A DNA stretch of 54,054 bases, from positions 1 to 54,054 of IMG/VR virus record IMGVR_UViG_3300028091_000011; one strand, given 5' to 3'. The position numbers were made by a program, and so were the translations under genes. The notes below the pieces were generated by a model that saw nothing but the letters and a program-made list of their open reading frames with translations, did no database searches and had not been told where the DNA came from. This document shows, piece by piece, positions 1 through 31,247 of this stretch. The stretch comes from a virus. Its lineage: Duplodnaviria > Caudoviricetes. Position 1 is the stretch's first letter; every line of letters begins with the position of its first letter.

Positions 1-196
1 GCTCCCGTGCGATCTTGTCGATCATCATCATCATCGCCCAGTCGCTTGGTGTCAAGTCCTCGTTGAACTTGTGCTTGAACATGGCGTTGATCGCGCCAAC
101 AGTACGCATGAAATGATGCTGTGCGTCTCCGTAGGTGCGTCCTCGCTTCGACACAGCATCAATCGCCTCATTCAATAATGCTTCTTTGTCGTTCAC
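1..196 (-). CDS. DUF6378-like phage protein, 3' end truncated by the window
   Basis: Not in the ORF track. The GTG start overlaps the MTase TGA (GTGA). It translates VNDKEALLNEAIDAVSKRGRTYGDAQHHF...LTPSDWAMMMMIDKIARE, matching the R..YG...T..D...MM..KIAR pattern. Confidence 0.7.
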   Translation of the reverse strand, partial: MNDKEALLNEAIDAVSKRGRTYGDAQHHFMRTVGAINAMFKHKFNEDLTPSDWAMMMMIDKIARE

Positions 197-1548
197 GGAG
201 TGGTCTCCGAGAAAAGAGTTGGATGCGCTGTTGATTTCGTTCGCTTTTCCATTGCAGACGCGATACGAGCCTTCGCTATCTCGACATAACTCGCTTCTCT
301 TTCAATACCAACAAAGCGAAATCCTTCCAGCATCGCTGCCTTGCCCGTACTTCCTGATCCCATGAAAGGATCAAGGACGATCCCGTTTGGAGGGGTGACC
401 AAGCGACATAGGTAGCGCATCAGGTCGGTCGGCTTGACCGTTGGATGGGTGTTCACCCTTGGTCGTGGATTCTGTTCACGAATCTCATTTGTGTAGGGAA
501 GCGTTCCATGCTTCCTCTGCCCGAATGCAACAGACTGCTGCAAGGTTCCGCTGTCGGATTCCAAGCCATCTTCCCTGTCGCTCCTGCTTGCCTTGGCGCA
601 GTAGAAGAAACGGGCGGCAGACCCGCTGTCGCCAAATCCCGTGAGCGGTCTACCCGCTTGAGACTGTCCGTAGGTGGAAGACTTGACATTCTGAATGCCG
701 CACGGCTTGCCGCTAGTTGTGTGGGGAAACAACCCCACCACCTCATCGCTGCCATCGTGAATGAGGTTGGCGGGGAAGCGACCCTTCGTCGTGTCCATTT
801 CCCCGATTCCGATTTGTGGAGAGAAGTATCCATCGCCTCTCCTTCTTCTGTCAATCCTCATCCTTGCAGAGTTGGGGCTGTTCACTCTTTCCATAGCGGC
901 TGCGTCCTCTGCGCTCGTGGAAATCCTACACCCATCAACATTGATCCCGCCCGTTCCGTGCTTCAACACATTCTCCGCAACCGTTCCGACGAGCGGCTTC
1001 CTTGCGACGATGATCGGCTCCCATGCGGGCTTGAGAGCGGTTCCCCAACCATTCCATTTTTTTGCATCATCGGTTGCTGGGGGATCAATGGTGATCTTCC
1101 TGCCACCAGCACTCCATCCCGATGATGTTTGGTATTCGCATTGTTGATTGACCAATCTCCCAGCCCTAGCGGGATCAACTTCTCCAACTTCACGCTCGGC
1201 TCCCGCCGCCTTGTCAATCGCCTTGCTCACATCATGCGACTTGGGGAATCCGCTGCCGTAGACCCACATGATGCAGTCTCGGATTTCCCATCCTGCGTCT
1301 TCAATCGCCACGGCAAGTCGGTGGTAGGTGCGAGTTCCGCCGAAGGCAAGAAGGTGACATCCCGGCTTTGCAACCCGCAAGGCTTCGATCCAAAAGTCCT
1401 TGGCGGGAACGCCGTGATCCCACTCCTTCCCCATGAACTCAAGTCCGTAGGGAGGATCGGTAACAATGGAGTCAATGCTTTGATCGCAAAGTTTCCGAAT
1501 CTCGTTCCAACAATCGCCTGCATAGATCGTGTGCCTGATGTCTTCCAT
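193..1548 (-). CDS. DNA N4-cytosine/N6-adenine methyltransferase (beta class)
   Basis: Catalytic TDPPY near the N-terminus, then HPTVKP and the SAM-binding LDPFMGSGSTG near the C-terminus. The start is moved to MEDIRH (1548), which has a GAGG RBS. Confidence 0.95.
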   Translation of the reverse strand: MEDIRHTIYAGDCWNEIRKLCDQSIDSIVTDPPYGLEFMGKEWDHGVPAKDFWIEALRVAKPGCHLLAFGGTRTYHRLAVAIEDAGWEIRDCIMWVYGSGFPKSHDVSKAIDKAAGAEREVGEVDPARAGRLVNQQCEYQTSSGWSAGGRKITIDPPATDDAKKWNGWGTALKPAWEPIIVARKPLVGTVAENVLKHGTGGINVDGCRISTSAEDAAAMERVNSPNSARMRIDRRRRGDGYFSPQIGIGEMDTTKGRFPANLIHDGSDEVVGLFPHTTSGKPCGIQNVKSSTYGQSQAGRPLTGFGDSGSAARFFYCAKASRSDREDGLESDSGTLQQSVAFGQRKHGTLPYTNEIREQNPRPRVNTHPTVKPTDLMRYLCRLVTPPNGIVLDPFMGSGSTGKAAMLEGFRFVGIEREASYVEIAKARIASAMEKRTKSTAHPTLFSETTP

Positions 1549-1574
1549 GACTTCCTCGTCTGTGCTTGGGCGAT

Positions 1575-3248
1575 CTAGCCCTTCTTGATCTTGTCGATTG
1601 CCTCTGACGCGCCCTTGCGGTCGAAGTTCGCGGGGTCGAGACCAGCCTTGCGAAGCACCCATGCCTGCTTGTCCGTGGGCGCGGACATGAGGTGTTCGAT
1701 CAACTGGCTTGCCTCCTTGGTGTTGAGGTTGTCAACATTGGGAATGTTGTTGCGCTTCAGGAAGGCGATCTGCTTCTCGCTGGCGGGAATGCGCTTCGCC
1801 CACCCGGGCACGCGCTGCGGCACGATCCCAAGCGACGAGAACGGGTCGATGTCCTGCGTCTTGTAGGTCGTGCGAATCTTGATGAAAGTCCTGCGCTTCT
1901 CCTCCGCCTCGCGCTTGAGGTCGCGCTCGACCTCATCCATCTGCTCAAGTACATCGACCTCGACCAGCAGCGAGTTGTTGGCATCCTGCTCCGACTTCGC
2001 CGTAGCCCTGTCGCGCACAGCGTCAGACCAGTTTCCTCCAAGCGCGTCCGCGACACGCATCAACTTGTGGCGACCAGAGTTCCCAACGAAGTCGAGGACG
2101 GTCACGCACTTCTTCGCGCTCGACGCGATTGCAGCCCGTCTCCCCTCTGGCGTTTCGATCCCGTCAATCACGCTCGGCAGCGTCCTCGTACCGCGACCAA
2201 CCATCTGGCAGTAAAGGCTCCTGCTCTTGGTCGGGCGCATCATGGCGATGAACTGAACGCCCTTGCCGTCCGTTGCTGGGTCGTCCCACCCCTCCGTGGC
2301 GATGCCGACATTGCAAAGGAACTGGTACTTGCCGTCACCGAAGTCGCGGAAGATGGTTCGCCTGCGGTCGTGCGGGGTGTTCGCGCTCACGAACGCCGCC
2401 GTGTTGGGCTTGTACCTGTTGATGATTTCAGCCACCCGCTCGGCGTGTTCGACGGACGCGCAGAAGATGAGCGTTCGCCTGTCGCCAGCGATCTTCACGG
2501 TCGGCTCGACCATGCGGTGGAGCGTCTCCTCGTACTTCAGAACGCGGTCGAGGTCGGCTCCGTTGAGGTCGCCAGCGGTGGTGCGGCAGTCGGAGTAGTC
2601 GAGGCTGCTGACCGTGACCATCGTCTGCTTGATGGGGACAAGAAATCCGTCTGCAATGCCTTCAGCGACACCGTACTCATACGCGACCGAATCGAACACC
2701 TGACCAAGAGCCTCTTCGTCGGCGCGGTCGGGGGTCGCGGTAACGCCAAGAACCTTCGCGCCGCCAGCGGTGAACCAGTTGATGACATCTCGGTACGACG
2801 AACTCGTCGCGTGGTGAGCCTCGTCAACGACGACAAGGCTGAACTGCGATGGGTTGAACCGCTCCATCCGCCGCGAACCGCCGCTCTCCGCGACACAGGT
2901 CTGGACGGATGCGACGACGACTGGATCGGCGTAGATGCCGTTCGTCGCACGCCGCTCCGCCATCTCAACGGAGGCGTTGATGCCAACTCGCGTCTGGATG
3001 TGCCGTGCAGCCTGTTCGACAAGTTCGCTTCGGTGGGCGATCACTAGGCAACGCTTCCCATTGCCAGACATTCGGCGGATCATCTCGCCAAAGGTCGCCG
3101 TCTTGCCAAGACCAGTCGCCATGACGAGCAGGGTCGAGTCGTTGGTCTGGAACTCGCGTTCGACAGCCTCGACAGCCTCGGTCTGGTACGGACGCAGGCT
3201 GATCGCCTTGCGCTGAATCAACTGCGTGGGAGTGAACAGGTCGGTCAT
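1575..3248 (-). CDS. Superfamily 2 DEAH helicase (ResIII/Irc3-like)
   Basis: LRPYQ Q-motif, ATGLGKT Walker A, DEAHH, TAT and QMVGRGTR motifs. The C-terminus has repeated SEKQ/TDKQ helices. Confidence 0.93.
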   Translation of the reverse strand: MTDLFTPTQLIQRKAISLRPYQTEAVEAVEREFQTNDSTLLVMATGLGKTATFGEMIRRMSGNGKRCLVIAHRSELVEQAARHIQTRVGINASVEMAERRATNGIYADPVVVASVQTCVAESGGSRRMERFNPSQFSLVVVDEAHHATSSSYRDVINWFTAGGAKVLGVTATPDRADEEALGQVFDSVAYEYGVAEGIADGFLVPIKQTMVTVSSLDYSDCRTTAGDLNGADLDRVLKYEETLHRMVEPTVKIAGDRRTLIFCASVEHAERVAEIINRYKPNTAAFVSANTPHDRRRTIFRDFGDGKYQFLCNVGIATEGWDDPATDGKGVQFIAMMRPTKSRSLYCQMVGRGTRTLPSVIDGIETPEGRRAAIASSAKKCVTVLDFVGNSGRHKLMRVADALGGNWSDAVRDRATAKSEQDANNSLLVEVDVLEQMDEVERDLKREAEEKRRTFIKIRTTYKTQDIDPFSSLGIVPQRVPGWAKRIPASEKQIAFLKRNNIPNVDNLNTKEASQLIEHLMSAPTDKQAWVLRKAGLDPANFDRKGASEAIDKIKKG

Positions 3249-3514
3249 GCGGTCGGCTTCCGATACGGATGCGAGTCATCGCCTGCAACGCCGCTTCTCG
3301 CGGCTTCTTCCATCGTCGCGTGATAGTGAGACGGTGGCATCTGCGCCATGATGAACGAGAACAGCCTGCGGGCATCCTCATCCTTGACCACGATCACCTC
3401 GTCGCCACGGGTCGCGCTCGGCTTGAGTTCGACTCTGGCATCGCCGCCAAAGAACGAGATTCTGCTGACGGAATCGACTGGTATGAACACCAGTTCGGAT
3501 AGTGGAATGAACAT
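3245..3514 (-). CDS. Hypothetical protein (MFIPLSELV...)
   Basis: The ATG overlaps the upstream stop (TGATG) and the stop overlaps the helicase start (ATGA). Confidence 0.7.
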   Translation of the reverse strand: MFIPLSELVFIPVDSVSRISFFGGDARVELKPSATRGDEVIVVKDEDARRLFSFIMAQMPPSHYHATMEEAARSGVAGDDSHPYRKPTA

Positions 3515-4338
3515 CACTTGCGTCCCTTCTTGAGATTCTTCGGAGCCATTTCGATTGCGACCTTTCCAAGCCAGCCCGTGTGCTTGCAGGCATCGCACCC
3601 GTCTCCATTGCAATACACGCACAGGTCGTGCGGCATCGCATCGGTCAGGCAACGCTTGGCGTTCCTTATGTCCGCGTCCAGCGCGTTCCAGTTGACCGAA
3701 TAGCCAGCGGGGTCGCTCGACAGCATCGTGAGCGCGGCACGCACCGCGTCGATCATGCCGATGATCTCCGTGTACTTCTTCTTCGCCTCCGCCATCGGCT
3801 CGTCTGCGGCGTTGTCGCCAGCGTCATCGTCGCCGTCAACGCCCGTGGACTCCTCGTCCATCTCCTCGACCTCATCGACCGAATCGGAGCCTTCCTCCTC
3901 GCGCATCCTGTGCTGGCGCACGAACTCGTGCGACACGCCGATGCGCCGCGCAATCTCCCTGTCCGACATCATCTCGGTGGTCGGGATCGCGAGAACCATC
4001 TCGACGGCGCGAATCTTGTCGGCGTTGCTTCGGCGCAGACCGTGCGACTGGTTCGCGCCAGCGGCACGCCACATAGCCTCGCTGTCGGTCATCGGAATGA
4101 CCTCGGCTTCGATCTCCTCGTATCCAAGTTCCCGTGCAGCCTGAACGCGATGCCATCCGTCAACGATGAACATCACGCCCTCGACAAGAGCGACCGTGAT
4201 AGGTGGCATGACCGCGCCGCCTGACATCGACTCCTTGTAGTCGTCAACCGTTCCCGTGTCGGTACGGGTGCGCGACTGAAACCGCGCATCATCGGTGAGG
4301 TCTGCGAGAGGGACAACCGTCTTCTTGGTCTTCGTCAT
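3514..4338 (-). CDS. ParB/Srx N-terminal domain protein with HTH and C-terminal Cys4 finger
   Basis: PPITV...IVDGWHRVQAA ParB motif, SDREIARRIGVSHEFV HTH, an acidic linker and CVYCNGDGCDAC. Confidence 0.85.
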   Translation of the reverse strand: MTKTKKTVVPLADLTDDARFQSRTRTDTGTVDDYKESMSGGAVMPPITVALVEGVMFIVDGWHRVQAARELGYEEIEAEVIPMTDSEAMWRAAGANQSHGLRRSNADKIRAVEMVLAIPTTEMMSDREIARRIGVSHEFVRQHRMREEEGSDSVDEVEEMDEESTGVDGDDDAGDNAADEPMAEAKKKYTEIIGMIDAVRAALTMLSSDPAGYSVNWNALDADIRNAKRCLTDAMPHDLCVYCNGDGCDACKHTGWLGKVAIEMAPKNLKKGRK

Positions 4339-4685
4339 TCCCGTATCATCCTTGATGTTGAGGTGTTTCTTTGGCTACCCGTGAGGCGGGAGCGCAGAGC
4401 GGCTCCTGAAGGAGAGCCGCTGCGATCTCTGGCTGACCCTTTCGGCGTACAGCGCGTATCGCGCCCCGTCAGAATGCTCATTTCGGTGGGGTCAGCCACC
4501 CGCTGATGACGGGGAATAGCGCGGGTGTCAATCGTTGACACTCGGCGTAGGGTAGAGCCAATCCCTACGGCAAATCCCCGTCTTTCGACGGGGAGACCTC
4601 GACCTTCTCGACGGGCAGTCGTCACCCTTCCCGATGCGCCACAGCGCAGTAGTCGTCGGGAGCGACTTGACCTTTGGTTGGACAT
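4335..4685 (-). CDS. Possible 116-aa Arg-rich ORF running through the structured element
   Basis: It starts in a TGATG overlap with the erf stop and ends in an ATGA overlap with the ParB start, but the sequence is not protein-like. Confidence 0.35.
   Translation of the reverse strand: MSNQRSSRSRRLLRCGASGRVTTARREGRGLPVERRGFAVGIGSTLRRVSTIDTRAIPRHQRVADPTEMSILTGRDTRCTPKGSARDRSGSPSGAALRSRLTGSQRNTSTSRMIRE
4339..4684 (-). ncRNA. Candidate highly structured RNA element between erf and the ParB-like gene
   Basis: At least 7 helices, including UCCCCGUC-GAAA-GACGGGGA and a pair of crossing helices (4430-4439/4489-4498 and 4464-4471/4507-4514). Confidence 0.55.
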
Positions 4686-5494
4686 CAGCCGCCCCTTGAG
4701 GAGCGGCGGGTGCGGAGCGTATCCAGCCGCGAGGACTTGTCACTACCCTCTGCGGAAGATTCCGCATTTTCTTCCCCAGCCGCCTCGCCGTGGGCTTGAA
4801 CAGCCTTGGCGACCCACGCTTCCACGCGAGGCAAGAGCGACTCGGGCAGACCAGCGATGCCGCTGGAGACATCGAAGCCCTGCCCCTCAACCGCCGCGAG
4901 GAGCGCGACTGGGTTGCGCTTGATCGCCGCCAGACGATTGAGAATCTCGTCGGCGCGGTCAGAGCCGATCAGAGGCTCGTCGGATGAAGCCGCGCGAATG
5001 GGGGCGGCTTCCGACAGGAAGTCGTCAGCGGGCTTGCTGGGCTTGCTGGCGGGCTTGCCGCTTCCGCCCTTGGCGTTGGCAGGGTTGAAGGTAGGACGGC
5101 TCTTGCGATCCTCTTCCCCATCGTCGTCGGGTTCCCCGACCACCAGACCGAACGCCGCAAGAGAGTACCTACGGAGGTAGGTCACGAACGAACCCAAGAC
5201 CTGTGCCGTTGCACGCTCGGGCAATGCCATGCTCACGCTGTCCGCCATCCATTCGCCGCTGGCGTGAATGAGTCGAGTCGTGACGGAGACGCTGTTGTCG
5301 CCCGTGCTGATTGACTGGACGATTGCGAGTCCTTGCTTCGCGAGTGGCTTGCGGAGCGACTCGGTGTGCGCCGCGAGACTCGCGTAGCGGTTCTTGAAGT
5401 GCGGGTTCACCGCGTCGAACTCTGGGTTCGCGATCTCAAGTTGCGCCTTCGCAAGCGCGGCAGCGAGACTGCCGATCTGCTGTGACTGTTCCAT
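4685..5494 (-). CDS. erf: ERF-family single-strand annealing protein
   Basis: LAAALAKAQ...NPHFKNRYASL...T.LIHASGEW...GS..TY.RRYSL...DDDG ERF signature. Confidence 0.92.
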   Translation of the reverse strand: MEQSQQIGSLAAALAKAQLEIANPEFDAVNPHFKNRYASLAAHTESLRKPLAKQGLAIVQSISTGDNSVSVTTRLIHASGEWMADSVSMALPERATAQVLGSFVTYLRRYSLAAFGLVVGEPDDDGEEDRKSRPTFNPANAKGGSGKPASKPSKPADDFLSEAAPIRAASSDEPLIGSDRADEILNRLAAIKRNPVALLAAVEGQGFDVSSGIAGLPESLLPRVEAWVAKAVQAHGEAAGEENAESSAEGSDKSSRLDTLRTRRSSRGG

Positions 5495-5549
5495 TGTGTG
5501 TTGCCTCTTGTCTCTGATTCAGGCGACCCCGTTAGCCGCCATTGTCGGT

Positions 5550-5577
5550 AGTATACCGAACTCGGAATAGGTGTCAA
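5550..5577 (-). promoter_or_regulatory. Sigma70-type promoter for the erf operon
   Basis: TTGACA-N16-TATACT, nearly identical to the promoter at 7026-7053. Confidence 0.8.
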
Positions 5578-5840
5578 GACCCTCGGACGAGTTTCCCGAA
5601 CTTCTTCAGGGCTTCGTCCCAGTCGTTGTAGAGTTCGATGGTTACATCGTTGCCGACGACCTGTACACGCGCGACCGCGTGAATGTCGTCGCGCACATTG
5701 CGGCAGAGCGCGGCGACCGCGAACTCCCCGATGCGACCGATTGCCGTAGCCCTGTTCTCCATGATGGAGTCAACGGCGGCGGCGGAGAGGAGACGAACCG
5801 TCTCCACCGAAGGGGAGAACTTCTTCTTGTTGGACATCAT
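5574..5840 (-). CDS. Hypothetical protein (MMSNKKKF...)
   Basis: Protein-like 3' part of ORF 5574..5960, starting after a terminator hairpin. Confidence 0.65.
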   Translation of the reverse strand: MMSNKKKFSPSVETVRLLSAAAVDSIMENRATAIGRIGEFAVAALCRNVRDDIHAVARVQVVGNDVTIELYNDWDEALKKFGKLVRGS

Positions 5841-5862
5841 GCTAGTTGTACCCGCTGAATCG

Positions 5863-5895
5863 AAAGCACCGCCGCGTGTCTGGTCGCGGCGGCGC
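5863..5895 (-). terminator. Intrinsic terminator after DUF932
   Basis: An 11-bp stem, GCGCCGCCGCG/CGCGGCGGTGC, is followed by TTT on the minus strand. Confidence 0.6.
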
Positions 5896-5926
5896 AACTT
5901 GAGGTCACCAGACGACCGTGAGACGC

Positions 5927-6946
5927 TTACGCGCCGACCAGTTCGACCGTCTTGCGCCACGCGATGTTGCGGAGTTCCGCCTCGCGTCCGAAGAGGTGCG
6001 AGTGGATGCGGGCATCGGACGAAGGTGCGCTACGCGCGGCGAGTTCGCTATGCTGGAGGAACTCGGTCACCGCGTTGTACGCGATCCAAGCGTTCGCACC
6101 GAACTGACCAGCCTCGCGGTCGAAGGTCTCGCTCATGCGGCGGAGCGCGGCGACACAGGTCGCCTTCTTCGTCTCCTCGCGCTTGTTGACGGGGTTCAGC
6201 GGGATTTCGCCGTACATCGTCTCAAGCACATCGACCCACAGCCCGCGAATCTGCTCGGCGTTCAGCGACTTCTTCGCCACGCCGTTGATGGCGATGGCGT
6301 AGTTGTCGGTCGCCTTCTTCCACGCCTTCGACACGCGCACCGCGTACTCGCGGTTCTCAAGGAAGTTGAGCGTGTGCTTGAGGCTCCACGCGAAGCCGTC
6401 CTTGCCGCCCTCCTGAAGAGCCATGCGGACGGTGTTCGCGCACACGGGGCGGATGCCCGACCACATTGACTTGTACGCGAGGGTTCCGTCATGCCCGTTG
6501 CACAGGATGAAGTAGGGCTTCACGAAGTCGCCCTTGCCTCCGATCTCAATGCCGTCCTTCGACCCGATGGCGGTGTACACGATGCGTCCGCCGCGAATCG
6601 AACCGAAGGTCTCGGCGCAACCGCCGATCTCCTCCGCGATCAACTGCGCGTCCTCCGCCATCTGGCGGTTCTGGAGCGGAGTCCAGTTGGACGGCTGGAC
6701 GGCGAAGATGTCGCCCGTGTCCTCGCGGATCACCATCTTGAAACGCTCGGTGGCGAAGGCGGTGGGCTTGTCGTCGCCGTCGATGTAACCCGACAGGCGG
6801 TTGGTCGTGACGATGTTCCAGTCCAGTCCCGACTCGCTGAACGCCTCCATCGGCATCATGTCGGTCTGGACGACCCGACCCTTGCCGTGCCAAGCGGCGG
6901 TGCGGCGGAGGATCAGGTTGTCGGTGTCGGTCATCTCGTGTGCCAT
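5927..6946 (-). CDS. DUF932-family phage/plasmid protein
   Basis: AWHGKG, ETFGSIRGGR, NGHDGT, IRPVCANT and AWIAYNAVTEF motifs. Confidence 0.88.
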   Translation of the reverse strand: MAHEMTDTDNLILRRTAAWHGKGRVVQTDMMPMEAFSESGLDWNIVTTNRLSGYIDGDDKPTAFATERFKMVIREDTGDIFAVQPSNWTPLQNRQMAEDAQLIAEEIGGCAETFGSIRGGRIVYTAIGSKDGIEIGGKGDFVKPYFILCNGHDGTLAYKSMWSGIRPVCANTVRMALQEGGKDGFAWSLKHTLNFLENREYAVRVSKAWKKATDNYAIAINGVAKKSLNAEQIRGLWVDVLETMYGEIPLNPVNKREETKKATCVAALRRMSETFDREAGQFGANAWIAYNAVTEFLQHSELAARSAPSSDARIHSHLFGREAELRNIAWRKTVELVGA

Positions 6947-7025
6947 TGCTCGTCTCTCCTATGCGTGTGCGGCGTTGCCGCGATTCCGATCAGTCGAGCC
7001 AGCCCGTTTGCTGTTCGACCCGCGT

Positions 7026-7053
7026 ACTATACCCCAATCGGCACAGGTGTCAA
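7026..7053 (-). promoter_or_regulatory. Leftward early sigma70 promoter
   Basis: TTGACA-N16-TATAGT. Confidence 0.8.
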
Positions 7054-7100
7054 GGGGTGTGAACAGAAAATGGGAGAAATAGATTCTTGCCGCGACCCAC

Positions 7101-7129
7101 TTGACAAGTGTTGATACTTGTGGTAGGGT
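7101..7129 (+). promoter_or_regulatory. Rightward early sigma70 promoter
   Basis: TTGACA-N17-TAGGGT with an upstream TG. The -35 lies inside the palindrome CACTTG-A-CAAGTG. Confidence 0.65.
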
Positions 7130-7153
7130 GTAAGCCTCACGGAAGGAGTCTTG

Positions 7154-7885
7154 ATGCCTACTCTCAAGAACGGCAAGTGGAGGATGCCCAAAGACAGCAG
7201 CATCCGACAATGGAAGAACACAAGCGAGTTTCCAGACTCGTGGGCAAAGGCAACGGTCGAGTGGCTGTGCGAGTTCTACGGAGTCCCTGCGGTGTCGATC
7301 ACCATCTGGGACGCGAAGAAGAGGCGCGGCAGCGGTACGGCGTTCCTGACCATGAACAGGGTTCATCTTTCCATCTCTCGGCGCAACTACCGCCGCGACT
7401 GGAAATACTGGAACATCTACTGGGATGTCCCGCGCACGGCGAACAGCGCGTGCGAGGCGTTCGTGTTCCTCGCGGCTCACGAGATCGCCCACATCAGTCA
7501 CGAGGGCAAGACGATCTACCGAACTTGCCAACAGGAGAGTTCGCTCCCGAACAAGCGCGACTGGCGGAACCGCATGGAGTGCCGCATTCAAGACATGGCG
7601 CAGAATGCGCTTGATGCCTACCGCGCGGGCGCATACAGGTGTCTCCTCGCGCATCACGCATCGTCCATCAGACGAGAAGCGGCGGCAAAGACCGCAAAGG
7701 CGGAGATGAAGCAAAGGGCAAGCACGGCAGAGGCTCGTGTACTCGCGCTGGAATCTCGCGTCGAGGTCTGGGACGCAAAGAAGCGCAGAGCGGAGAACGC
7801 GATCAAGAAACTACGCAGGAGCATCTCGGGAATACTGGCGGCGCAGAAGCGTGCCGCATTGAAAGCGGGCGCGAAGCCGCTATAG
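7154..7885 (+). CDS. HExxH-motif protein (putative zinc metalloprotease fold) with basic coiled-coil tail
   Basis: LAAHEIAH plus a downstream E (RMECR). AAGGAG RBS. Confidence 0.6.
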   Translation: MPTLKNGKWRMPKDSSIRQWKNTSEFPDSWAKATVEWLCEFYGVPAVSITIWDAKKRRGSGTAFLTMNRVHLSISRRNYRRDWKYWNIYWDVPRTANSACEAFVFLAAHEIAHISHEGKTIYRTCQQESSLPNKRDWRNRMECRIQDMAQNALDAYRAGAYRCLLAHHASSIRREAAAKTAKAEMKQRASTAEARVLALESRVEVWDAKKRRAENAIKKLRRSISGILAAQKRAALKAGAKPL

Positions 7886-7886
7886 T
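7859..7886 (+). promoter_or_regulatory. Promoter for a leaderless HTH gene
   Basis: TTGAAA-N16-TATAGT, with the ATG 7 nt downstream. Confidence 0.55.
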
Positions 7887-7893
7887 GTACCGA

Positions 7894-8094
7894 ATGCGGA
7901 ATATCTTGTCGGATCATGTCACGGTTGCCGACCTCGCGCGTATCTACGGGGTCACGCCTCGGCGCATCAGGGCAATCGCTGCAAACAGAAGCATCGAAGG
8001 CGAACGGGTTGGGCGCACGCTCGTCTTCAAGAAGAATCAGGTCGCCCAGTTCAGACCGCTTCCATGCGGTCATCGCGCTACGGGGCGCGGGTAA
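7894..8094 (+). CDS. Excisionase/MerR-like winged HTH DNA-binding protein
   Basis: VTVADLARIYGVTPRRIRAIA...GERVGRTLVF. Confidence 0.8.
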   Translation: MRNILSDHVTVADLARIYGVTPRRIRAIAANRSIEGERVGRTLVFKKNQVAQFRPLPCGHRATGRG

Positions 8095-8107
8095 GGAATG
8101 AGACGGA

Positions 8108-9046
8108 ATGGTCATCTCCCCACAGCAACTCGCTGATCGCAACAAGGGCATCGGCTCGTCGGACGCTGCGGCGATCCTCGGGTTGTCGTCGTACAAGACC
8201 CCCTACGACATCTGGCTCCAGAAGACTGGTCGCGTCGATGGCGGCGGTGCAGGCGAAGCCGCGTGGATCGGCACGATGCTTGAGAAGGCTGTCCTCGACA
8301 TGGCGGCGGTCAAGATCGGCAAGCCTGTCGTCGCGGCTCCAGACCACTCCGATGCGACCTTCGTTGACGGAATCCTCCGCGCGAATGTCGATGGCATGGT
8401 CGAGGCGTTTGAGCGCGGTCGTCCCATCGTGGAGTCCAAGACCACGGGTCAACTGAAGGACTGGGGCGATGCCGAAACCGATGGCGTTCCCGACCATGTT
8501 CTGGTTCAGGTGACGCATCAAATGATCTGTGCTGGCTCCGACCTCTGCTATGTGGCGCGGCTTGGGGCTGCATTCGGTCTGTCATTCGACATCTTCACCG
8601 TGCCTCTCGACCGATCCTTCGCGGAGGAAATCAAGTCGCGCCTTGGCGAGTGGTGGGACAACCATGTCGTGAAGGACACTCCGCCCGAGATCGTTGATGG
8701 TCAGGTTCCTTCGTTCGACCTTCTCCGCGCACGCAAGCGCGATGACGGGGTGATCGCGGAACTGCCAGAGGAACTGGTGATGCACGAGCGGGCTGCAAAG
8801 CAGCGGCTCGACGCTGCGGAGCAGGACTACGCGAACGCGAAGTCTCTGCTGGTCGCCGCGATGGGCGATGCGCCCGTAGGCATCGGAGCGGGAGTCCGCA
8901 TCACGGTCAGTCAGGTCAGCCGCAACGGGTTCGATACCGACAAGTGGAAGTTGGAGAACCCAGAGGCGGCGAAGAGGTACGCCAAGACGACCTCGTACTC
9001 CAAGATCGACATCCGCGATGTCGGTCGAGTCATCAGGTCGCGCTGA
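8108..9046 (+). CDS. YqaJ-like (lambda exonuclease family) recombination nuclease
   Basis: R.KGIGSSDAAAILGLS.YKTP...G..LE...ANVDG...ESKT...QV.HQM. Confidence 0.92.
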   Translation: MVISPQQLADRNKGIGSSDAAAILGLSSYKTPYDIWLQKTGRVDGGGAGEAAWIGTMLEKAVLDMAAVKIGKPVVAAPDHSDATFVDGILRANVDGMVEAFERGRPIVESKTTGQLKDWGDAETDGVPDHVLVQVTHQMICAGSDLCYVARLGAAFGLSFDIFTVPLDRSFAEEIKSRLGEWWDNHVVKDTPPEIVDGQVPSFDLLRARKRDDGVIAELPEELVMHERAAKQRLDAAEQDYANAKSLLVAAMGDAPVGIGAGVRITVSQVSRNGFDTDKWKLENPEAAKRYAKTTSYSKIDIRDVGRVIRSR

Positions 9047-9105
9047 TCCATTCACTCGCGGGCGGGCGCACGGACGCGCCTGTCAACCTTCTGTACGCGC
9101 AGCCC

Positions 9106-9134
9106 TTGACACGAGTCGAGGGCTGTGCTACAAT
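9106..9134 (+). promoter_or_regulatory. Sigma70 promoter for a leaderless transcript
   Basis: TTGACA-N17-TACAAT with extended TG, and ATG at 9141. Confidence 0.8.
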
Positions 9135-9140
9135 GTGGGC

Positions 9141-9398
9141 ATGAGCAAGCCAAAGCCAGACCATCTCTCCCCGACTGGAAGTCCGTACTGGACTGACGGC
9201 AACGGAGTTCCGCATCTCAACTTCGCATGGGCGGAGAGGCACTACGGGACGATGAGCGATGATGCTCTGCGCTGGAACATCGGTGACTGCCGAGCGGCGG
9301 TCAAGGCGAATCCAGACAATCCAAAGAACGGGCTGTACGAAGACACCGTTCATGTGATCGCGGGAATCCTGTCTCGCCGTAACAAGGAGAAGGCATGA
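9141..9398 (+). CDS. Hypothetical protein (MSKPKPDHL...)
   Basis: The ATG is 6 nt after the -10 element, and the stop overlaps the next start (ATGA). Confidence 0.75.
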   Translation: MSKPKPDHLSPTGSPYWTDGNGVPHLNFAWAERHYGTMSDDALRWNIGDCRAAVKANPDNPKNGLYEDTVHVIAGILSRRNKEKA

Positions 9399-10465
9399 GC
9401 AAGTTCATCTACAGTTCGATGTGGGAGTGGTCGCCATTGGCGGATGCTCTACATTCGTTTGTTGGGATGCCAGTCGTTGGTGAGCAAGGGCGCATTGTGA
9501 TTCCAACGCTTGACGAGATCGTCAGGGATCGCGAGGAGATGTTCGGCGCAAATCAGTTGCGCGATGGCATCAGACCGCCGCGCCTGATCCAGCCGCCAAG
9601 CGGCTTCACCGATCCGTACAAGTGGTGGGTTCTTGCGACCGAGACGGTCATCAGGGACAAGGACACGGACGCGGAGTTCGTGTCGCGCGGAGTCATGGAG
9701 GCGTTGCGTGAGCATGACGCGCCGACCTACTTCGTGAGTAACGAGATGATCGACGCGATGGAGCGAACCGACTTCGGCAACGCTCCGATGCGAGACATCC
9801 AATGGGCGCACGAGGGGATGCTGTTCATGCTCCCCGACCGACAGGACTCGTACTACGGGGCGGTCATGCGAGACCCCAATACGGGGAGCGCGTTCACAAC
9901 GAAGGTACGCGCTGTCGGCATCGGATTCGCCCGAGTCTGGTCAGAGGTCGAGAAGGGTGACGGTATCGCGGTGTTCATCGTGGACAGCGCGGGGGCTTGC
10001 TCTTGGGCTTTGATCCCGTTCATGGACACTTGGCAGGAGGCGATGGACTACATCGGCAAGCGCGACATGGTGGACGACGAGACGCGGAGGAAGTACCCGT
10101 GGCAGTCGAAACTGGCGGAGGTCGAGCGCGAGGCTTTGTTCAAGAACTGTTCGCTGATATTCAAGGTTCTCTGCCTCTGGAACTCCGAGCGGTCAGACGG
10201 TTCGTCGGAGATCGTCCAGCACGGAGGACGGATCATTCGCGCGGGCAACCCACGGCGAACCGACCGAAAGAGGCACGACCTCTGGAGCGGCATCCTGCTT
10301 CGGCTGAACGAGAGCGTTTCCGAGTCTGGCGAGAGCGGGGATGCCAGCGACCCCAAGGTGCGCCGACATTGGCGGCGAGGTCACTTCCGAAACCAGCCTC
10401 ACGGGGCTGGTCGATCCCTCCGAAGGTCTATCTGGATCAGACCGTACATGGCTGGTTCTCTGTAA
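9395..10465 (+). CDS. Hypothetical phage protein with C-terminal HWRRGHFR motif
   Basis: 356-aa ORF with an AAGGAG RBS and the basic motif RRHWRRGHFRNQ...IWIRPY common in phage proteins. Confidence 0.8.
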   Translation: MSKFIYSSMWEWSPLADALHSFVGMPVVGEQGRIVIPTLDEIVRDREEMFGANQLRDGIRPPRLIQPPSGFTDPYKWWVLATETVIRDKDTDAEFVSRGVMEALREHDAPTYFVSNEMIDAMERTDFGNAPMRDIQWAHEGMLFMLPDRQDSYYGAVMRDPNTGSAFTTKVRAVGIGFARVWSEVEKGDGIAVFIVDSAGACSWALIPFMDTWQEAMDYIGKRDMVDDETRRKYPWQSKLAEVEREALFKNCSLIFKVLCLWNSERSDGSSEIVQHGGRIIRAGNPRRTDRKRHDLWSGILLRLNESVSESGESGDASDPKVRRHWRRGHFRNQPHGAGRSLRRSIWIRPYMAGSL

Positions 10466-27509: not shown

Positions 27510-28343
27510 ATGGCAGGCATCGTTGGAACTCAAGACCTGTGGGTCGTCGGATCGCGGTTTTTCTTCAAGCCCGAAAGCACGATCTCTGATCGCATCATCG
27601 ACATTGGCACGATCAACACGGTGAATCCCGCGATTGAGCCGACCAAGGTCGATCTTCGCGACTCTGGCTCGGGCTTCTCCAAGATCATCGACTCGACCCT
27701 CACGGATGTCTCGGAGTCGTTTGAGGTCACCACGAAGAACTTCAGCCGCGACAACCTGTCGTACCTCTTCGTGTCCGCGACCCCGAAGGAACTCACCGAA
27801 GAAGCGGACACGGCTGTCCAGATGCTCCTGTCGAATGTGGCTGCAACGGCTTACCCCGTGAACACGCTCGTCAAGGTCTACAACAACACGGGAACGGGAA
27901 ACACGGGTCAGCCCGTCTACAACATCAACGCCAACCCGACGAACGCCGTGTCTGGCTTCGCCTCTGGCGCGATCTCCTTCGTCGTGCATGACGCTGCGCG
28001 TGGCATCCTGCGGGTCGCTACAAACAGCCTGTCGGGAACGGGCAGCATCACGATCACGCTTGCTACGACCGATCCCGAACCTGTGGCGAACAACCGCCGC
28101 GTGCTGACCCCGCAGATGGGTTCGCTCTCGCGCCTGACTGGTCGCGGCTACATCTACTACTCGCGCAACAACTTTGAGTACCAGACCGTTCGCGAGTTCA
28201 AGTGCCAGATCACCCCGTCGAACGCGAACTTCCAAGTCGAGGACTACTCGGACTTCACGCTGACGGCGAAGGCTCTGTATGAGCCGACCAACACCACCGC
28301 GCCGTTCGGTCGTCTCGTCGCATTCGCTGGCTCCATCGTCTGA
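27510..28343 (+). CDS. Tail tube (major tail) protein, paralog A
   Basis: Lies between the terminator and the chaperone/TMP, starts MAGIVG.QDLWVVGSR and has strong codon bias. Confidence 0.75.
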   Translation: MAGIVGTQDLWVVGSRFFFKPESTISDRIIDIGTINTVNPAIEPTKVDLRDSGSGFSKIIDSTLTDVSESFEVTTKNFSRDNLSYLFVSATPKELTEEADTAVQMLLSNVAATAYPVNTLVKVYNNTGTGNTGQPVYNINANPTNAVSGFASGAISFVVHDAARGILRVATNSLSGTGSITITLATTDPEPVANNRRVLTPQMGSLSRLTGRGYIYYSRNNFEYQTVREFKCQITPSNANFQVEDYSDFTLTAKALYEPTNTTAPFGRLVAFAGSIV

Positions 28344-28361: not shown

Positions 28362-29309
28362 ATGGCAGGACTCGTTGGCAATCAAGACCTCTGGATCGTT
28401 GGCTCCCGCTTCTACTTTGAGCAGGGAACTCGCGGCTCTGGCAAGATGATCGACCTCGGAACCGTGGATGTCATCTCGCCGCAGTTGACGACCAACATCG
28501 CTGAACTGAAGGACGGCGACAAGGGCATCCTGCGCCTCCTCGACCAGTCAATCACCCAGATTGATGAGGTCTACAACATCACCATCAAGAACTTCAACCT
28601 GACCAACCTGAACACGCTGTTCCTCGGCGGCGGTTGGACGGGAAGCAGCACGGCTGTCACGGGCAGCAACACCGCGTTCGACACGCTGAAGTTGAGCCTT
28701 GAGGACATCAACAACATCGGCGGCACGATCAACACGGGACAGTCGATTACTGGCGCGGGTGGTCTCTACCTGTTCCAGTTGACTGCAAGTGGTGAGCCTG
28801 TCCGAAACTTCGTTGGTACTGGCGGAACGCTGACCATCGGCGGCATCACGCAAGTCGAGAACACCAACTGGAAGTGGTACGACAAGAGCCGTGGCATCAT
28901 CCAGATTCTCACGCTTGCCGACTCGGGTGGCGGTGACGGCGTGACCGAATACAGCCCCGACATCACCTTCTCGGGCAACCGCGCTACTGGGTTCTCCAGC
29001 GGCAGCACCATCGACCTGATCTACACCCCCAGCAGCGCAGCCTACGGGTTCAGCGCGGGTCGCATCATGTACCCGCAGACCGCCACCCTGTCGTCGCTGT
29101 CGGGAACGGGTCATGTCTACTGGACGCGAAACAACGGCGAGTACATGACCGCCCGTTCGTTCCCATGCCAGATTCAGCCCGCTGGTGCAGCCCTCTCCGC
29201 AGACGATTACTCGTCGTGGACTCTGGCTGTCACCGTTCTCGCGAACAGCACCGTGGCTGGCGAAGAGGCTGGTCGCATGGTGTACGCGACTGGTACTGGC
29301 GAAATCTGA
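28362..29309 (+). CDS. Tail tube protein, paralog B
   Basis: MAGLVG.QD.WIVGSRFYFE...DDYSSWTL. Confidence 0.75.
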   Translation: MAGLVGNQDLWIVGSRFYFEQGTRGSGKMIDLGTVDVISPQLTTNIAELKDGDKGILRLLDQSITQIDEVYNITIKNFNLTNLNTLFLGGGWTGSSTAVTGSNTAFDTLKLSLEDINNIGGTINTGQSITGAGGLYLFQLTASGEPVRNFVGTGGTLTIGGITQVENTNWKWYDKSRGIIQILTLADSGGGDGVTEYSPDITFSGNRATGFSSGSTIDLIYTPSSAAYGFSAGRIMYPQTATLSSLSGTGHVYWTRNNGEYMTARSFPCQIQPAGAALSADDYSSWTLAVTVLANSTVAGEEAGRMVYATGTGEI

Positions 29310-30155: not shown

Positions 30156-31247
30156 ATGGCAGGACTCGTTGGCTCACAGGACTACTGGATCGTTGGCTCT
30201 CGGTTCTACTTTGAGCCGAATCTCTCTGGCACGACCACGCGCAGCGGCGAGATGATCGACCTTGGCACGGTTGACACCATCAGCCCGCAGATCGCGACCA
30301 ACATCGCGGAACTCAAGGACGCGGAGAGCGGTGTCATTCGCCTTGTGGATCAGGGACTCGTGAGCATTGACGAGACCTACTCCATCACGGTCAAGAACTT
30401 CAACTTCCGCAACCTCCAGATTCTCTTCGCTGGCAAGCCGCAGGCGGAGACGCAGGCGGCGAACATCACTCCTGCATCCATCACGCTGTCGAGCGAGGAA
30501 CTTTCGCGAACTCCGTCAGGCAACTCTGGTTCGATCATCAAGCCGACTGGCGGCTACCTCCTCGTCCAGTTGCGGGATAGCAACGGCAATCCTCTCCGCA
30601 ACTTCACCACGAGCAGCACCCTGACTGCAACAGCCAACATCGGTATTGGTGGTGCTTCTGCTGGGCTGACCAAGGACACTCATTGGACTTGGTGGGATGC
30701 GCCGAAGGGCATCATTCGCATCATCAACCTTCCTGCTGGTAGCGGTGGATATGCGGGCATGACGGTCACGGGCGGAGTCATCACCGCCTATCCGACCGCT
30801 GGGTTCACGATCACCTTCTCGGCGGCGACTGGTCTTGGCTACTCGGGCAACCGCGTGATCTACCCGCAGTCTGCAACGCTGTCCGACCTGACTGGCAACG
30901 CGCACATCTACTGGACGCGCAACAACGGGCAGGATGTCTCCGCCCGCACCTTCGCGTGCCAGATTCAGCCTGCTGGTAGTTCGCTGACCACCGACGACTA
31001 TTCGTCGTGGACGCTGACCGTGACTGCCCTCGCCACGGGATCGTCCACGGAGATCGCTGGTCGCTACACCAACATCAAGTGGAACAACACCACCACGGGC
31101 GACAATCTTGGTCTGCTGCCTAACGGCAACCCCGCGTACAACGAGAACTATGACGGCGCGGGTGGCGGTACGACAGGAACCAACTGGGACAAGAACCCGA
31201 ACGACTTTGATGTCGGCGGAACGCTTGGTGGCGGCAAGGCTGTCTAA
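30156..31247 (+). CDS. Tail tube protein, paralog B' with C-terminal extension
   Basis: Shares YWTRNNG...CQIQPAG...DDYSSWTL with paralog B. Confidence 0.75.
   Translation: MAGLVGSQDYWIVGSRFYFEPNLSGTTTRSGEMIDLGTVDTISPQIATNIAELKDAESGVIRLVDQGLVSIDETYSITVKNFNFRNLQILFAGKPQAETQAANITPASITLSSEELSRTPSGNSGSIIKPTGGYLLVQLRDSNGNPLRNFTTSSTLTATANIGIGGASAGLTKDTHWTWWDAPKGIIRIINLPAGSGGYAGMTVTGGVITAYPTAGFTITFSAATGLGYSGNRVIYPQSATLSDLTGNAHIYWTRNNGQDVSARTFACQIQPAGSSLTTDDYSSWTLTVTALATGSSTEIAGRYTNIKWNNTTTGDNLGLLPNGNPAYNENYDGAGGGTTGTNWDKNPNDFDVGGTLGGGKAV

Follow-up and report, generated by a model that had tools for sequence, protein, structure and literature searches.

What occupies the 346 nucleotides (nt) between the erf gene and the ParB-like gene (parB) that follows it in the IMG/VR virus record IMGVR_UViG_3300028091_000011? 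The record, which comes from an uncultivated river phage, is 54,054 base pairs (bp) long and was analysed in full; it is referred to here as the window. It is rated 100% complete, has a G+C content (GC) of 59% and, with portal, major head and tail proteins recognised among the PHROGs, has the look of a tailed phage. The gap is crossed by an open reading frame (ORF) of 116 codons on the minus strand (ORF116, 4335-4685), which is open along its whole length and carries no conserved-protein signal. The initial annotation took the stretch for an unrecognised large structured RNA, ribozyme or translation-dependent switch that would gate the helicase/methyltransferase operon, with a structured replication origin as the alternative. 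Our analysis indicates, with a probability of roughly 0.7, that positions 4368-4666 of the minus strand form a new structured RNA domain, conserved and about 300 nt long, in an early phage operon transcript, a domain that can wrongly be called as a hypothetical protein. The tests of fold, covariation and reading frame all favour a structured RNA of fair size, not recognised before, on the minus strand, which is the one transcribed, and the comparison of homologous sequences suggests that selection acts on the nucleotide sequence and its base pairing, not on the 116-codon frame. The structured RNA has a very narrow distribution and matches no known family.

Conservation and base pairing

Relatives were sought with DNA patterns and protein anchors in 2.9 million viral contigs, a metagenome collection and 185,579 species genomes. 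By these scans the element is confined to one small phage group with three lineages, represented by the window, L005 and L093; L002/L004, L003 and L091 are near-identical copies, and L006 is identical to L005. Its position in all carriers is between erf and the ParB-like gene. No further copy came from the pattern and protein scans of the viral contigs, the metagenome collection or the species genomes, the protein-based scan of genome contigs gave no homologue, and the more distant erf phages L014, L016 and L017 have no such element after erf. Nineteen genome-contig and four new viral matches to conserved 18-mers were rejected as chance, the latter lying inside unrelated coding sequence. The element is also not a dispersed repeat of the repetitive extragenic palindrome/bacterial interspersed mosaic element (REP/BIME) or miniature inverted-repeat transposable element (MITE) kind: it is single-copy, with one match in the phage record and no second found in the window by the covariance model.

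The structured core (4368-4666, minus strand; 299 nt), which is the range of covariance model R1 and starts 18 nt past the erf stop codon, is identical to the window at 272/299 positions (91%) in L005 and at 247/303 (81.5%) in L093, and 233 of the 303 alignment columns are invariant. The flanking genes of L093 are less similar than its core, with 73% identity in the N-terminal part of erf, 51% in its C-terminal part and 67% in parB; the corresponding values for L005 are 82%, 76% and 89%, against 91% for the core.

Minimum folding energies were compared with those of dinucleotide shuffles and expressed as z-scores. The stretch folds better than its shuffles: on the minus strand the whole 346 nt gives z = -2.99, with one of 100 shuffles equally stable, and the core alone gives z = -4.22, with none of 200 equally stable. 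The homologous cores reach -4.00 (L005) and -3.76 (L093), and the median of 37 minus-strand windows of 300 nt from the same operon is -1.04 (25 shuffles each). Folding energy is not unique to this locus, and the case therefore rests on the comparison with relatives.

Five distinct sequences yield a consensus fold of 109 pairs, in which 96.7% of cells are paired. Eleven pairs changed on both sides, compared with 2.5 +/- 1.3 in shuffles (none of 500 reaches 11) and 0-3 in slid controls. Because the consensus fold had been optimised on the same alignment, the count was repeated on the minimum-energy fold of the window alone, which is blind to the relatives; it contains nine such pairs, again against 2.5 +/- 1.3 (0/500), with 0-4 in slid controls. 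A strand-neutral count was restricted to the 78 pairs that both strands are predicted to form. Of these, 15 are changed in L093, nine of them on both sides, and all nine still pair, where the expected share is 0.09 (binomial P = 1.4e-6). The compensated pairs are found in the hairpins at 4575-4594 (three), 4399-4420 (two), 4485-4500 (two) and 4629-4661 (one) and in an extension of 4519-4546 (one). Compensatory change is thus present in every count, be it consensus (11), window-only (9) or strand-neutral (9/15). In L005, changes hit five of 156 paired columns and 20 of 142 unpaired columns.

Several features point to the minus, transcribed strand. Both GAAA loops read as GAAA on that strand only, and among the strand-neutral pairs the single changes lead to G·U on the minus strand six times and to A·C once, with one double change also giving G·U; these sequence features are what suggests the orientation.

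The reading frame

ORF116 had been described as coupled to erf by a TGATG overlap and to parB by an ATGA overlap. Both junctions are present in the window, base 4685 being shared with the erf stop codon, and all three lineages share the TGATG junction. The ATGA junction belongs to the window lineage only: the frame of L005 stops 8 nt before the parB ATG, so that this coupling is absent, and that of L093 continues for 48 nt beyond it.

The GC of ORF116 at codon positions 1/2/3 is 0.58/0.69/0.54; in the four neighbouring genes the third position (GC3) lies at 0.75-0.89 and the second (GC2) at 0.44-0.51. By codon-position GC, no other frame of the stretch looks coding. ORF116 has no match in Pfam and none in PHROG, and a database of 5.8 billion proteins gave 45 candidates, of which one reached E <= 0.01. 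This sole homologue is a cluster of 113 amino acids (aa) with 80% identity, named 'hypothetical protein' by its source.

The ratio of non-synonymous to synonymous substitution rates (dN/dS), computed over the 76 codons that align without insertions or deletions (indels), is 1.05 for L005 and 1.06 for L093; erf and parB have 0.04-0.10. Substitutions at the three codon positions number 7/11/6 (L005) and 11/12/12 (L093), against 4/1/33 and 19/23/70 in parB. The nominally 'synonymous' divergence of ORF116, 0.11 in L005 and 0.17 in L093, is 5-15 times below that of its neighbours (erf and parB: 0.52-0.95 in L005, 2.3-2.8 in L093), so every codon position is strongly constrained. Indels of -2, +3, +1 and -5 nt in L093 place the last third in other reading frames while its nucleotides are still conserved, and L005 has a 1-nt deletion near the ORF116 end. 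The ORF is therefore not conserved at the amino-acid level, and its description as non-protein-like is borne out by the dN/dS near 1, the frame shifts and the lack of a family. From the same ATG, a frame is nevertheless open in both relatives, over 112 aa in L005 and 129 aa in L093; its openness itself may be selected and its product not.

Parts of the element

A repeat search recovered, as inverted repeats, all six helices that the initial annotation had listed. Helix 1 (4398-4405/4414-4421, 8 nt), helix 2 (4430-4439/4489-4498, 10 nt), helix 3 (4464-4471/4507-4514, 8 nt), helix 5 (4546-4552/4563-4569, 7 nt) and helix 6 (4575-4582/4587-4594, 8 nt) are 100% complementary, and helix 4, with its core at 4525-4531/4535-4541, extends to 10 nt at 90%. 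The parts of the consensus fold are described below in minus-strand order.

The 5' hairpin domain (4621-4666) has arms at 4661-4656/4634-4629 and 4648-4644/4639-4635, with 100% of cells paired. Its outer extension, 4666-4662/4625-4621, is invariant and appears in the window-only fold. One pair of the domain reads C-G in the window, U·G in L005 and U-A in L093, two more pairs become G·U, and the 4-nt loop is variable (UGUG, UGCG or UCAG). The hairpin at 4575-4594 is the sixth helix of the earlier list, and its GAAA tetraloop on the minus strand (4586-4583) is confirmed. Three of its eight pairs changed on both sides in L093 with pairing kept, and one U-A became U·G in L005. The motif CCCCGTC/GACGGGG does recur, with possible cross-pairings, as had been noticed; in L093, however, both arms of this hairpin changed together while the other copies stayed unchanged, so that alternative pairing among the copies, as proposed, has not been kept up. 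In 72 viral contig stretches (L018-L089) the 18-nt GAAA-capped hairpin at 4577-4594 occurs without a difference; five of them are from this phage group, and the remainder share only about 20-40 nt around it. It is therefore a GC-rich GNRA hairpin of a general kind, met repeatedly in phages that are not related.

The next hairpin, 4547-4568, consists of six to seven invariant pairs, a helix that never varies in the consensus, and a 10-nt loop (4562-4553) that is invariant save its first base in L005. In all lineages this loop is able to pair with 4406-4400 over 7 bp, a candidate tertiary or alternative contact. The hairpin at 4519-4546 is built around a perfect palindrome (4541-4535/4531-4525) with invariant arms and a 3-nt loop that is CGA, TCA or CGG; nine of its 11 pairs never vary, one is compensatory and one is broken. 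The palindrome (4525-4541) could be an operator or ParB-type site embedded in the RNA element. In the domain at 4464-4514, the outer helix 3 (4514-4507/4471-4464) is invariant and encloses a hairpin, 4500-4496/4489-4485, in which L093 has replaced both bases in two of five pairs with pairing kept.

A weaker predicted branch at 4422-4462 combines the helices 4462-4458/4426-4422 and 4453-4444/4439-4432 with the second GAAA loop (4443-4440). Its cells are 92-95% paired, with no compensatory change and two pairs broken in the relatives, and its place in the fold is uncertain. In the hairpin at 4399-4420 (4420-4413/4406-4399), the first helix of the earlier list, two of eight pairs carry changes on both sides in L093 that leave them paired, and one U·G became U-A. 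The 3'-terminal hairpin at 4374-4393 (4393-4387/4381-4374) is 100% paired, with two pairs becoming G·U in L093. Alternatively, this segment may form the 3' side of a long-range helix that closes the fold (4618-4603/4389-4375), which has one compensatory pair and two pairs that lose pairing in the relatives; the two arrangements cannot be told apart.

The crossing of helices 2 and 3, from which a pseudoknot or switch had been proposed, exists in the window sequence. Helix 2 (4430-4498) is present there and is not conserved: four of its ten pairs are lost in L005 or L093, none with compensation, which leaves the pseudoknot or switch, as proposed, unconserved. Its 5' arm falls instead in the compensated hairpin 4500-4496/4489-4485, nested in helix 3, and helix 3, being invariant, is uninformative in this test. 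A long-range pairing of 4707-4694 with 4412-4399 was rejected, since it is not kept in L093 as judged by eye on the alignment.

Downstream of the core, conservation in the gap is lowest in the A-rich parB leader (4339-4367), which contains AAGGA at 4353-4349 and has a 5-nt deletion and many changes in L093. In the consensus the leader is unpaired save three doubtful outer pairs (80% paired), and the parB Shine-Dalgarno sequence sits in this unpaired tail outside the fold. Since the leader is A-rich, poorly conserved and unpaired, a classical switch that sequesters the Shine-Dalgarno sequence is unsupported. The small 3' hairpins that the window-only fold contains do not persist in L093, which has the 5-nt deletion. 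No minus-strand site resembling an intrinsic terminator or attenuator was found in 4339-4684.

The element matches none of the known RNA classes searched. At gathering scores, Rfam gave no match in the whole 54-kb window; Rfam 15 searched at E up to 10 over 3500-5600 gave three chance-level matches, none inside 4339-4684. The comparison covers ribozymes, riboswitches, large non-coding RNAs (ncRNAs) and phage RNAs, and Rfam includes CRISPR-DR families. The suggestion of a ribozyme thus found no family match even at this permissive threshold. A hammerhead reading of the plus-strand CUGAUGA at about 4502-4509 was dropped, as the motif is unconserved (position 4505 differs in L091, L005 and L093) and no Rfam ribozyme matches. 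The 4575-4594 hairpin with its 3' tail, which we take to resemble a type I-E repeat, was considered as a CRISPR-repeat mimic and also dropped, its stem having changed with compensation in L093 and no Rfam match being found. In the literature, no erf-ParB RNA, phage decoy RNA or ORF-masked RNA of this kind was found described.

The stretch is present in RNA libraries. Among 23 listed runs from 19 studies, 20 contain at least half of the sampled words of window positions 3900-5600, and all 20 are riverine metatranscriptomes stored as contigs; such contigs count as presence in RNA libraries only. The four of the 20 with the lowest shares were compared over window positions 1-10000, and in each a contig spans the element (4395-4779, 4465-4651, 4388-4716 and 4411-4688). 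Its depth is 6.8, 10.0 and 7.2 in three runs, compared with about 2 for the flanking pieces, and 2.9 in the fourth, a measure that, like the presence of uncovered bins, cannot rank the parts of a transcript. The contig left ends at 4395, 4388 and 4411, from three studies, give at most a weak hint of a 3' boundary.

Alternatives, operon and possible role

The gap might instead act as DNA, either as a replication origin, as a single-strand initiation site made of hairpins in minus-strand single-stranded DNA (ssDNA), or through operator or parS-like palindromes bound by the helix-turn-helix (HTH) ParB-like protein. In energy, the two strands differ little in their hairpin potential; the arms of the 17-bp palindrome at 4525-4541 are invariant and its 3-bp centre is free, as in dimeric operator sites; and the element adjoins recombination and ParB-like genes. 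The origin of this phage is moreover unplaced, as none of the 26 different proteins scanned against Pfam and PHROG could be recognised as a replication initiator, and G·T wobble in hairpins of minus-strand ssDNA would give the same strand bias as RNA. We nevertheless consider a DNA element unlikely. There are no iterons, as all 12 direct-repeat families have just two copies, the longest being 23 nt at 78% identity; nor is there an AT-rich unwinding stretch, with GC at 0.55-0.64 in every 100-nt window of 4300-4749, and the structured origin offered by the initial annotation loses its usual marks with them. Protein-binding palindromes keep their bases, whereas in three of the present hairpins the two arms changed together; each hairpin has its own sequence, so they are not repeated binding sites, and the stretch is present in RNA libraries. 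The conservation could also be one of history, the stretch being a recently shared or selfish insert with no function of its own, which would suit the three lineages to which the pattern and protein scans confine it. This is very unlikely, since the flanking genes on the same contigs are far more diverged, compensatory changes need selection on pairing, and the element is single-copy and always in the same slot. That ORF116 is a real, fast-evolving, arginine-rich small protein, with the RNA structure secondary, appears very improbable. An ATG-started frame does run from the erf stop to the parB start, is open more often than chance would have it, as few shuffles are, stays open in both relatives and has its one hypothetical-protein cluster. 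Set against this are a dN/dS of about 1 with every codon position 5-15 times more conserved than neutral flank sites, a last third read in other frames in L093 despite conserved nucleotides, a GC2 above GC3 that is unlike the four neighbours, and the lack of any Pfam or PHROG family.

The structured RNA preferred here has its own difficulties, and the following points weigh against it. One 300-nt window of the DUF932 gene reaches z = -3.48, so that folding energy by itself does not single out the locus. Only three diverged lineages are available and all 9-11 double changes fall on the L093 branch, a two-to-three-taxon comparison too shallow for R-scape-type statistics, and the consensus pairs were counted on the alignment that shaped them. 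Wobble changes favour the minus strand by 7 to 1, a one-sided binomial P of about 0.035 calculated by hand, and the plus strand folds at least equally well, with z = -3.60 for the whole 346 nt and an alignment-fold (alifold) energy of -138.7 kcal/mol against -129.3 on the minus strand, each strand's optimum using its own G·U pairs. The overall architecture is ambiguous at the closing helix, at the 4422-4462 branch and for any pseudoknot. The metatranscriptomes consist of contigs, which do not give strand, ends or level, and DNA can occur in such libraries. Just 2.6% of dinucleotide shuffles keep the ORF116 frame open (10.5% for any of three sense frames), and randomly placed changes leave its first 228 nt open with a probability of 0.30 (L005) or 0.28 (L093), under a null that takes no account of the strong nucleotide constraint. 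Ribosomes may translate across the fold, which would unfold the RNA, and the function of the RNA is something that we infer.

The minus-strand genes from about 7700 to 190 make up the early operon, which runs leftward. Upstream of the element, erf (4685-5494) encodes a single-strand annealing protein (Pfam ERF, E = 9.2e-18), and downstream lies parB (3514-4338), whose product matches PHROG 1033, ParB-like partition protein (E = 3.4e-18), and scores 24.6 bits with Pfam ParB_N, slightly below the 26.3-bit cut-off. The ParB family match is confined to the N-terminal 145 residues; further on, an acidic linker and an HTH-like segment precede a C-terminal cysteine cluster (C..C-N-G-D-G-C..C), and partition protein, nuclease and regulator are all open candidates for its function. 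A 135-codon minus-strand ORF at 3245-3652, with no significant family match, overlaps the 3' end of parB by 139 nt. The operon continues with a ResIII/DEAD helicase gene (1575-3248, minus) and an N6/N4 DNA methylase gene (193-1662, minus), whose GC3 of 0.58, against 0.75-0.89 in four other operon genes, may reflect recent acquisition.

Ahead of erf, a sigma-70-like promoter site (5550-5577, minus; TTGACA, 16 nt, TATACT) matches the consensus at 11 of 12 positions, and by this match the element-bearing transcript likely begins there; the promoter scan found no second minus-strand promoter for the element between 4690 and 5550. The point where leftward genes give way to rightward ones lies between two opposed promoter-like sites, 7026-7053 on the minus strand and 7859-7886 on the plus strand, which match the consensus at 11 and 10 of 12 positions. 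The DUF932 protein gene (5927-6946, minus) has a GC3 of 0.89. In the region 6013-7014 on the minus strand, three 300-nt windows have z-scores of -3.48, -2.88 and -2.88 (25 shuffles each), and other high contig depths in RNA libraries occur in it (7.3 and 8.5 in X17, 7.4 in X19). Elsewhere in the genome, phrog_807 (major tail protein with Ig-like domain) is matched by three of four consecutive genes (27510-28343, 28362-29309 and 30156-31247), which suggests tandem paralogues.

Within the operon, a leftward transcript would carry, from the promoter-like site at 5577-5550, erf, the element, the ParB-like gene, the helicase and the methyltransferase. The RNA of the element would fold into about nine helices, including two GAAA-capped hairpins and the hairpin with the invariant 10-nt loop. 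As to its role, we tentatively lean towards a stable, partner-binding RNA module that would outlive the flanking mRNA, on three grounds: conservation is as high in loops and junctions as in stems, the fold does not include the parB ribosome-binding site, and no terminator is present. A purely cis-acting role, in which the element would set how stable erf is relative to the mRNA downstream, protect the untranslated gap against Rho or couple translation, seems more doubtful. A rather unlikely combination, built on the openness of the frame above chance, is that the conserved fold is threaded by a frame kept open only for the passage of ribosomes from erf to parB, with translation toggling the RNA between states. 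Ribosomes leaving erf would restart at TGATG and run to the parB start, yielding a meaningless product. Unfolded, the RNA would serve as a conduit for coupling; folded, it would be a stable partner-binding ncRNA, so that the fold could reflect or determine the early operon's translational state. The toggle could be the mimicry of loop 4562-4553 with the 5' arm of the 4399-4420 hairpin.

The structured RNA domain may be compared with several known systems. Intercistronic stabiliser hairpins of the REP/BIME type and the long-range structures of RNA phages couple or set the expression of neighbouring cistrons. Like these, the element is a structure between or within cistrons, and its upstream frame could bring ribosomes to the next start; unlike REP sequences, which are dispersed repeats, it is single-copy, with conserved loops and a parB Shine-Dalgarno sequence that is not sequestered in the conserved fold. 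The GOLLD, ROOL and OLE families, which are presumably represented in Rfam, have sizes of about 500-800 nt. As their published account describes them, they are large structured ncRNAs associated with phages and metagenomes and have no known biochemical role (bioRxiv 10.1101/2024.12.08.627333). The element resembles that class, so described, in spanning several hundred nt, in its many helices, in having loops and junctions as conserved as its stems and in being phage-borne or environmental; it differs in its length of about 300 nt, in having no Rfam match, in its position between two operon cistrons, in being threaded by an ORF and in its restriction to three phage lineages.

The survey of candidate structured RNAs (csRNAs) in IMG/VR considered, by its own description, only regions between MetaProdigal genes, with at least three unique regions and motifs of 29-151 nt (PMC10690425). 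The data source and the kind of evidence, covariation in phage non-coding DNA, are the same here, and on that description the element is set apart by its length of about 300 nt and by an ORF annotated as a hypothetical protein. It would probably have been masked as coding in that survey, though the catalogue might list part of it. A structured phage RNA sensed by a CBASS cyclase, cabRNA, has also been reported (PMC10686824). As described there, it too arises within a phage operon and has no dedicated gene; it derives, in contrast, from terminase genes of staphylococcal phages, and no sequence relation is expected.

The phage non-coding RNAs known at about 300 nt are few in number, and for most of them no function has been assigned. 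The one considered here combines strong constraint, in 233 of 303 columns, with a place in an early recombination and DNA-modification operon whose neighbouring genes diverge. If its frame were indeed open only for the passage of ribosomes, one sequence would be shared in an unusual way by translation and RNA folding. As gene callers see an ORF at this locus, surveys limited to 'intergenic' regions would skip the element, and similar elements may hide among the hypothetical proteins of viral metagenomes.

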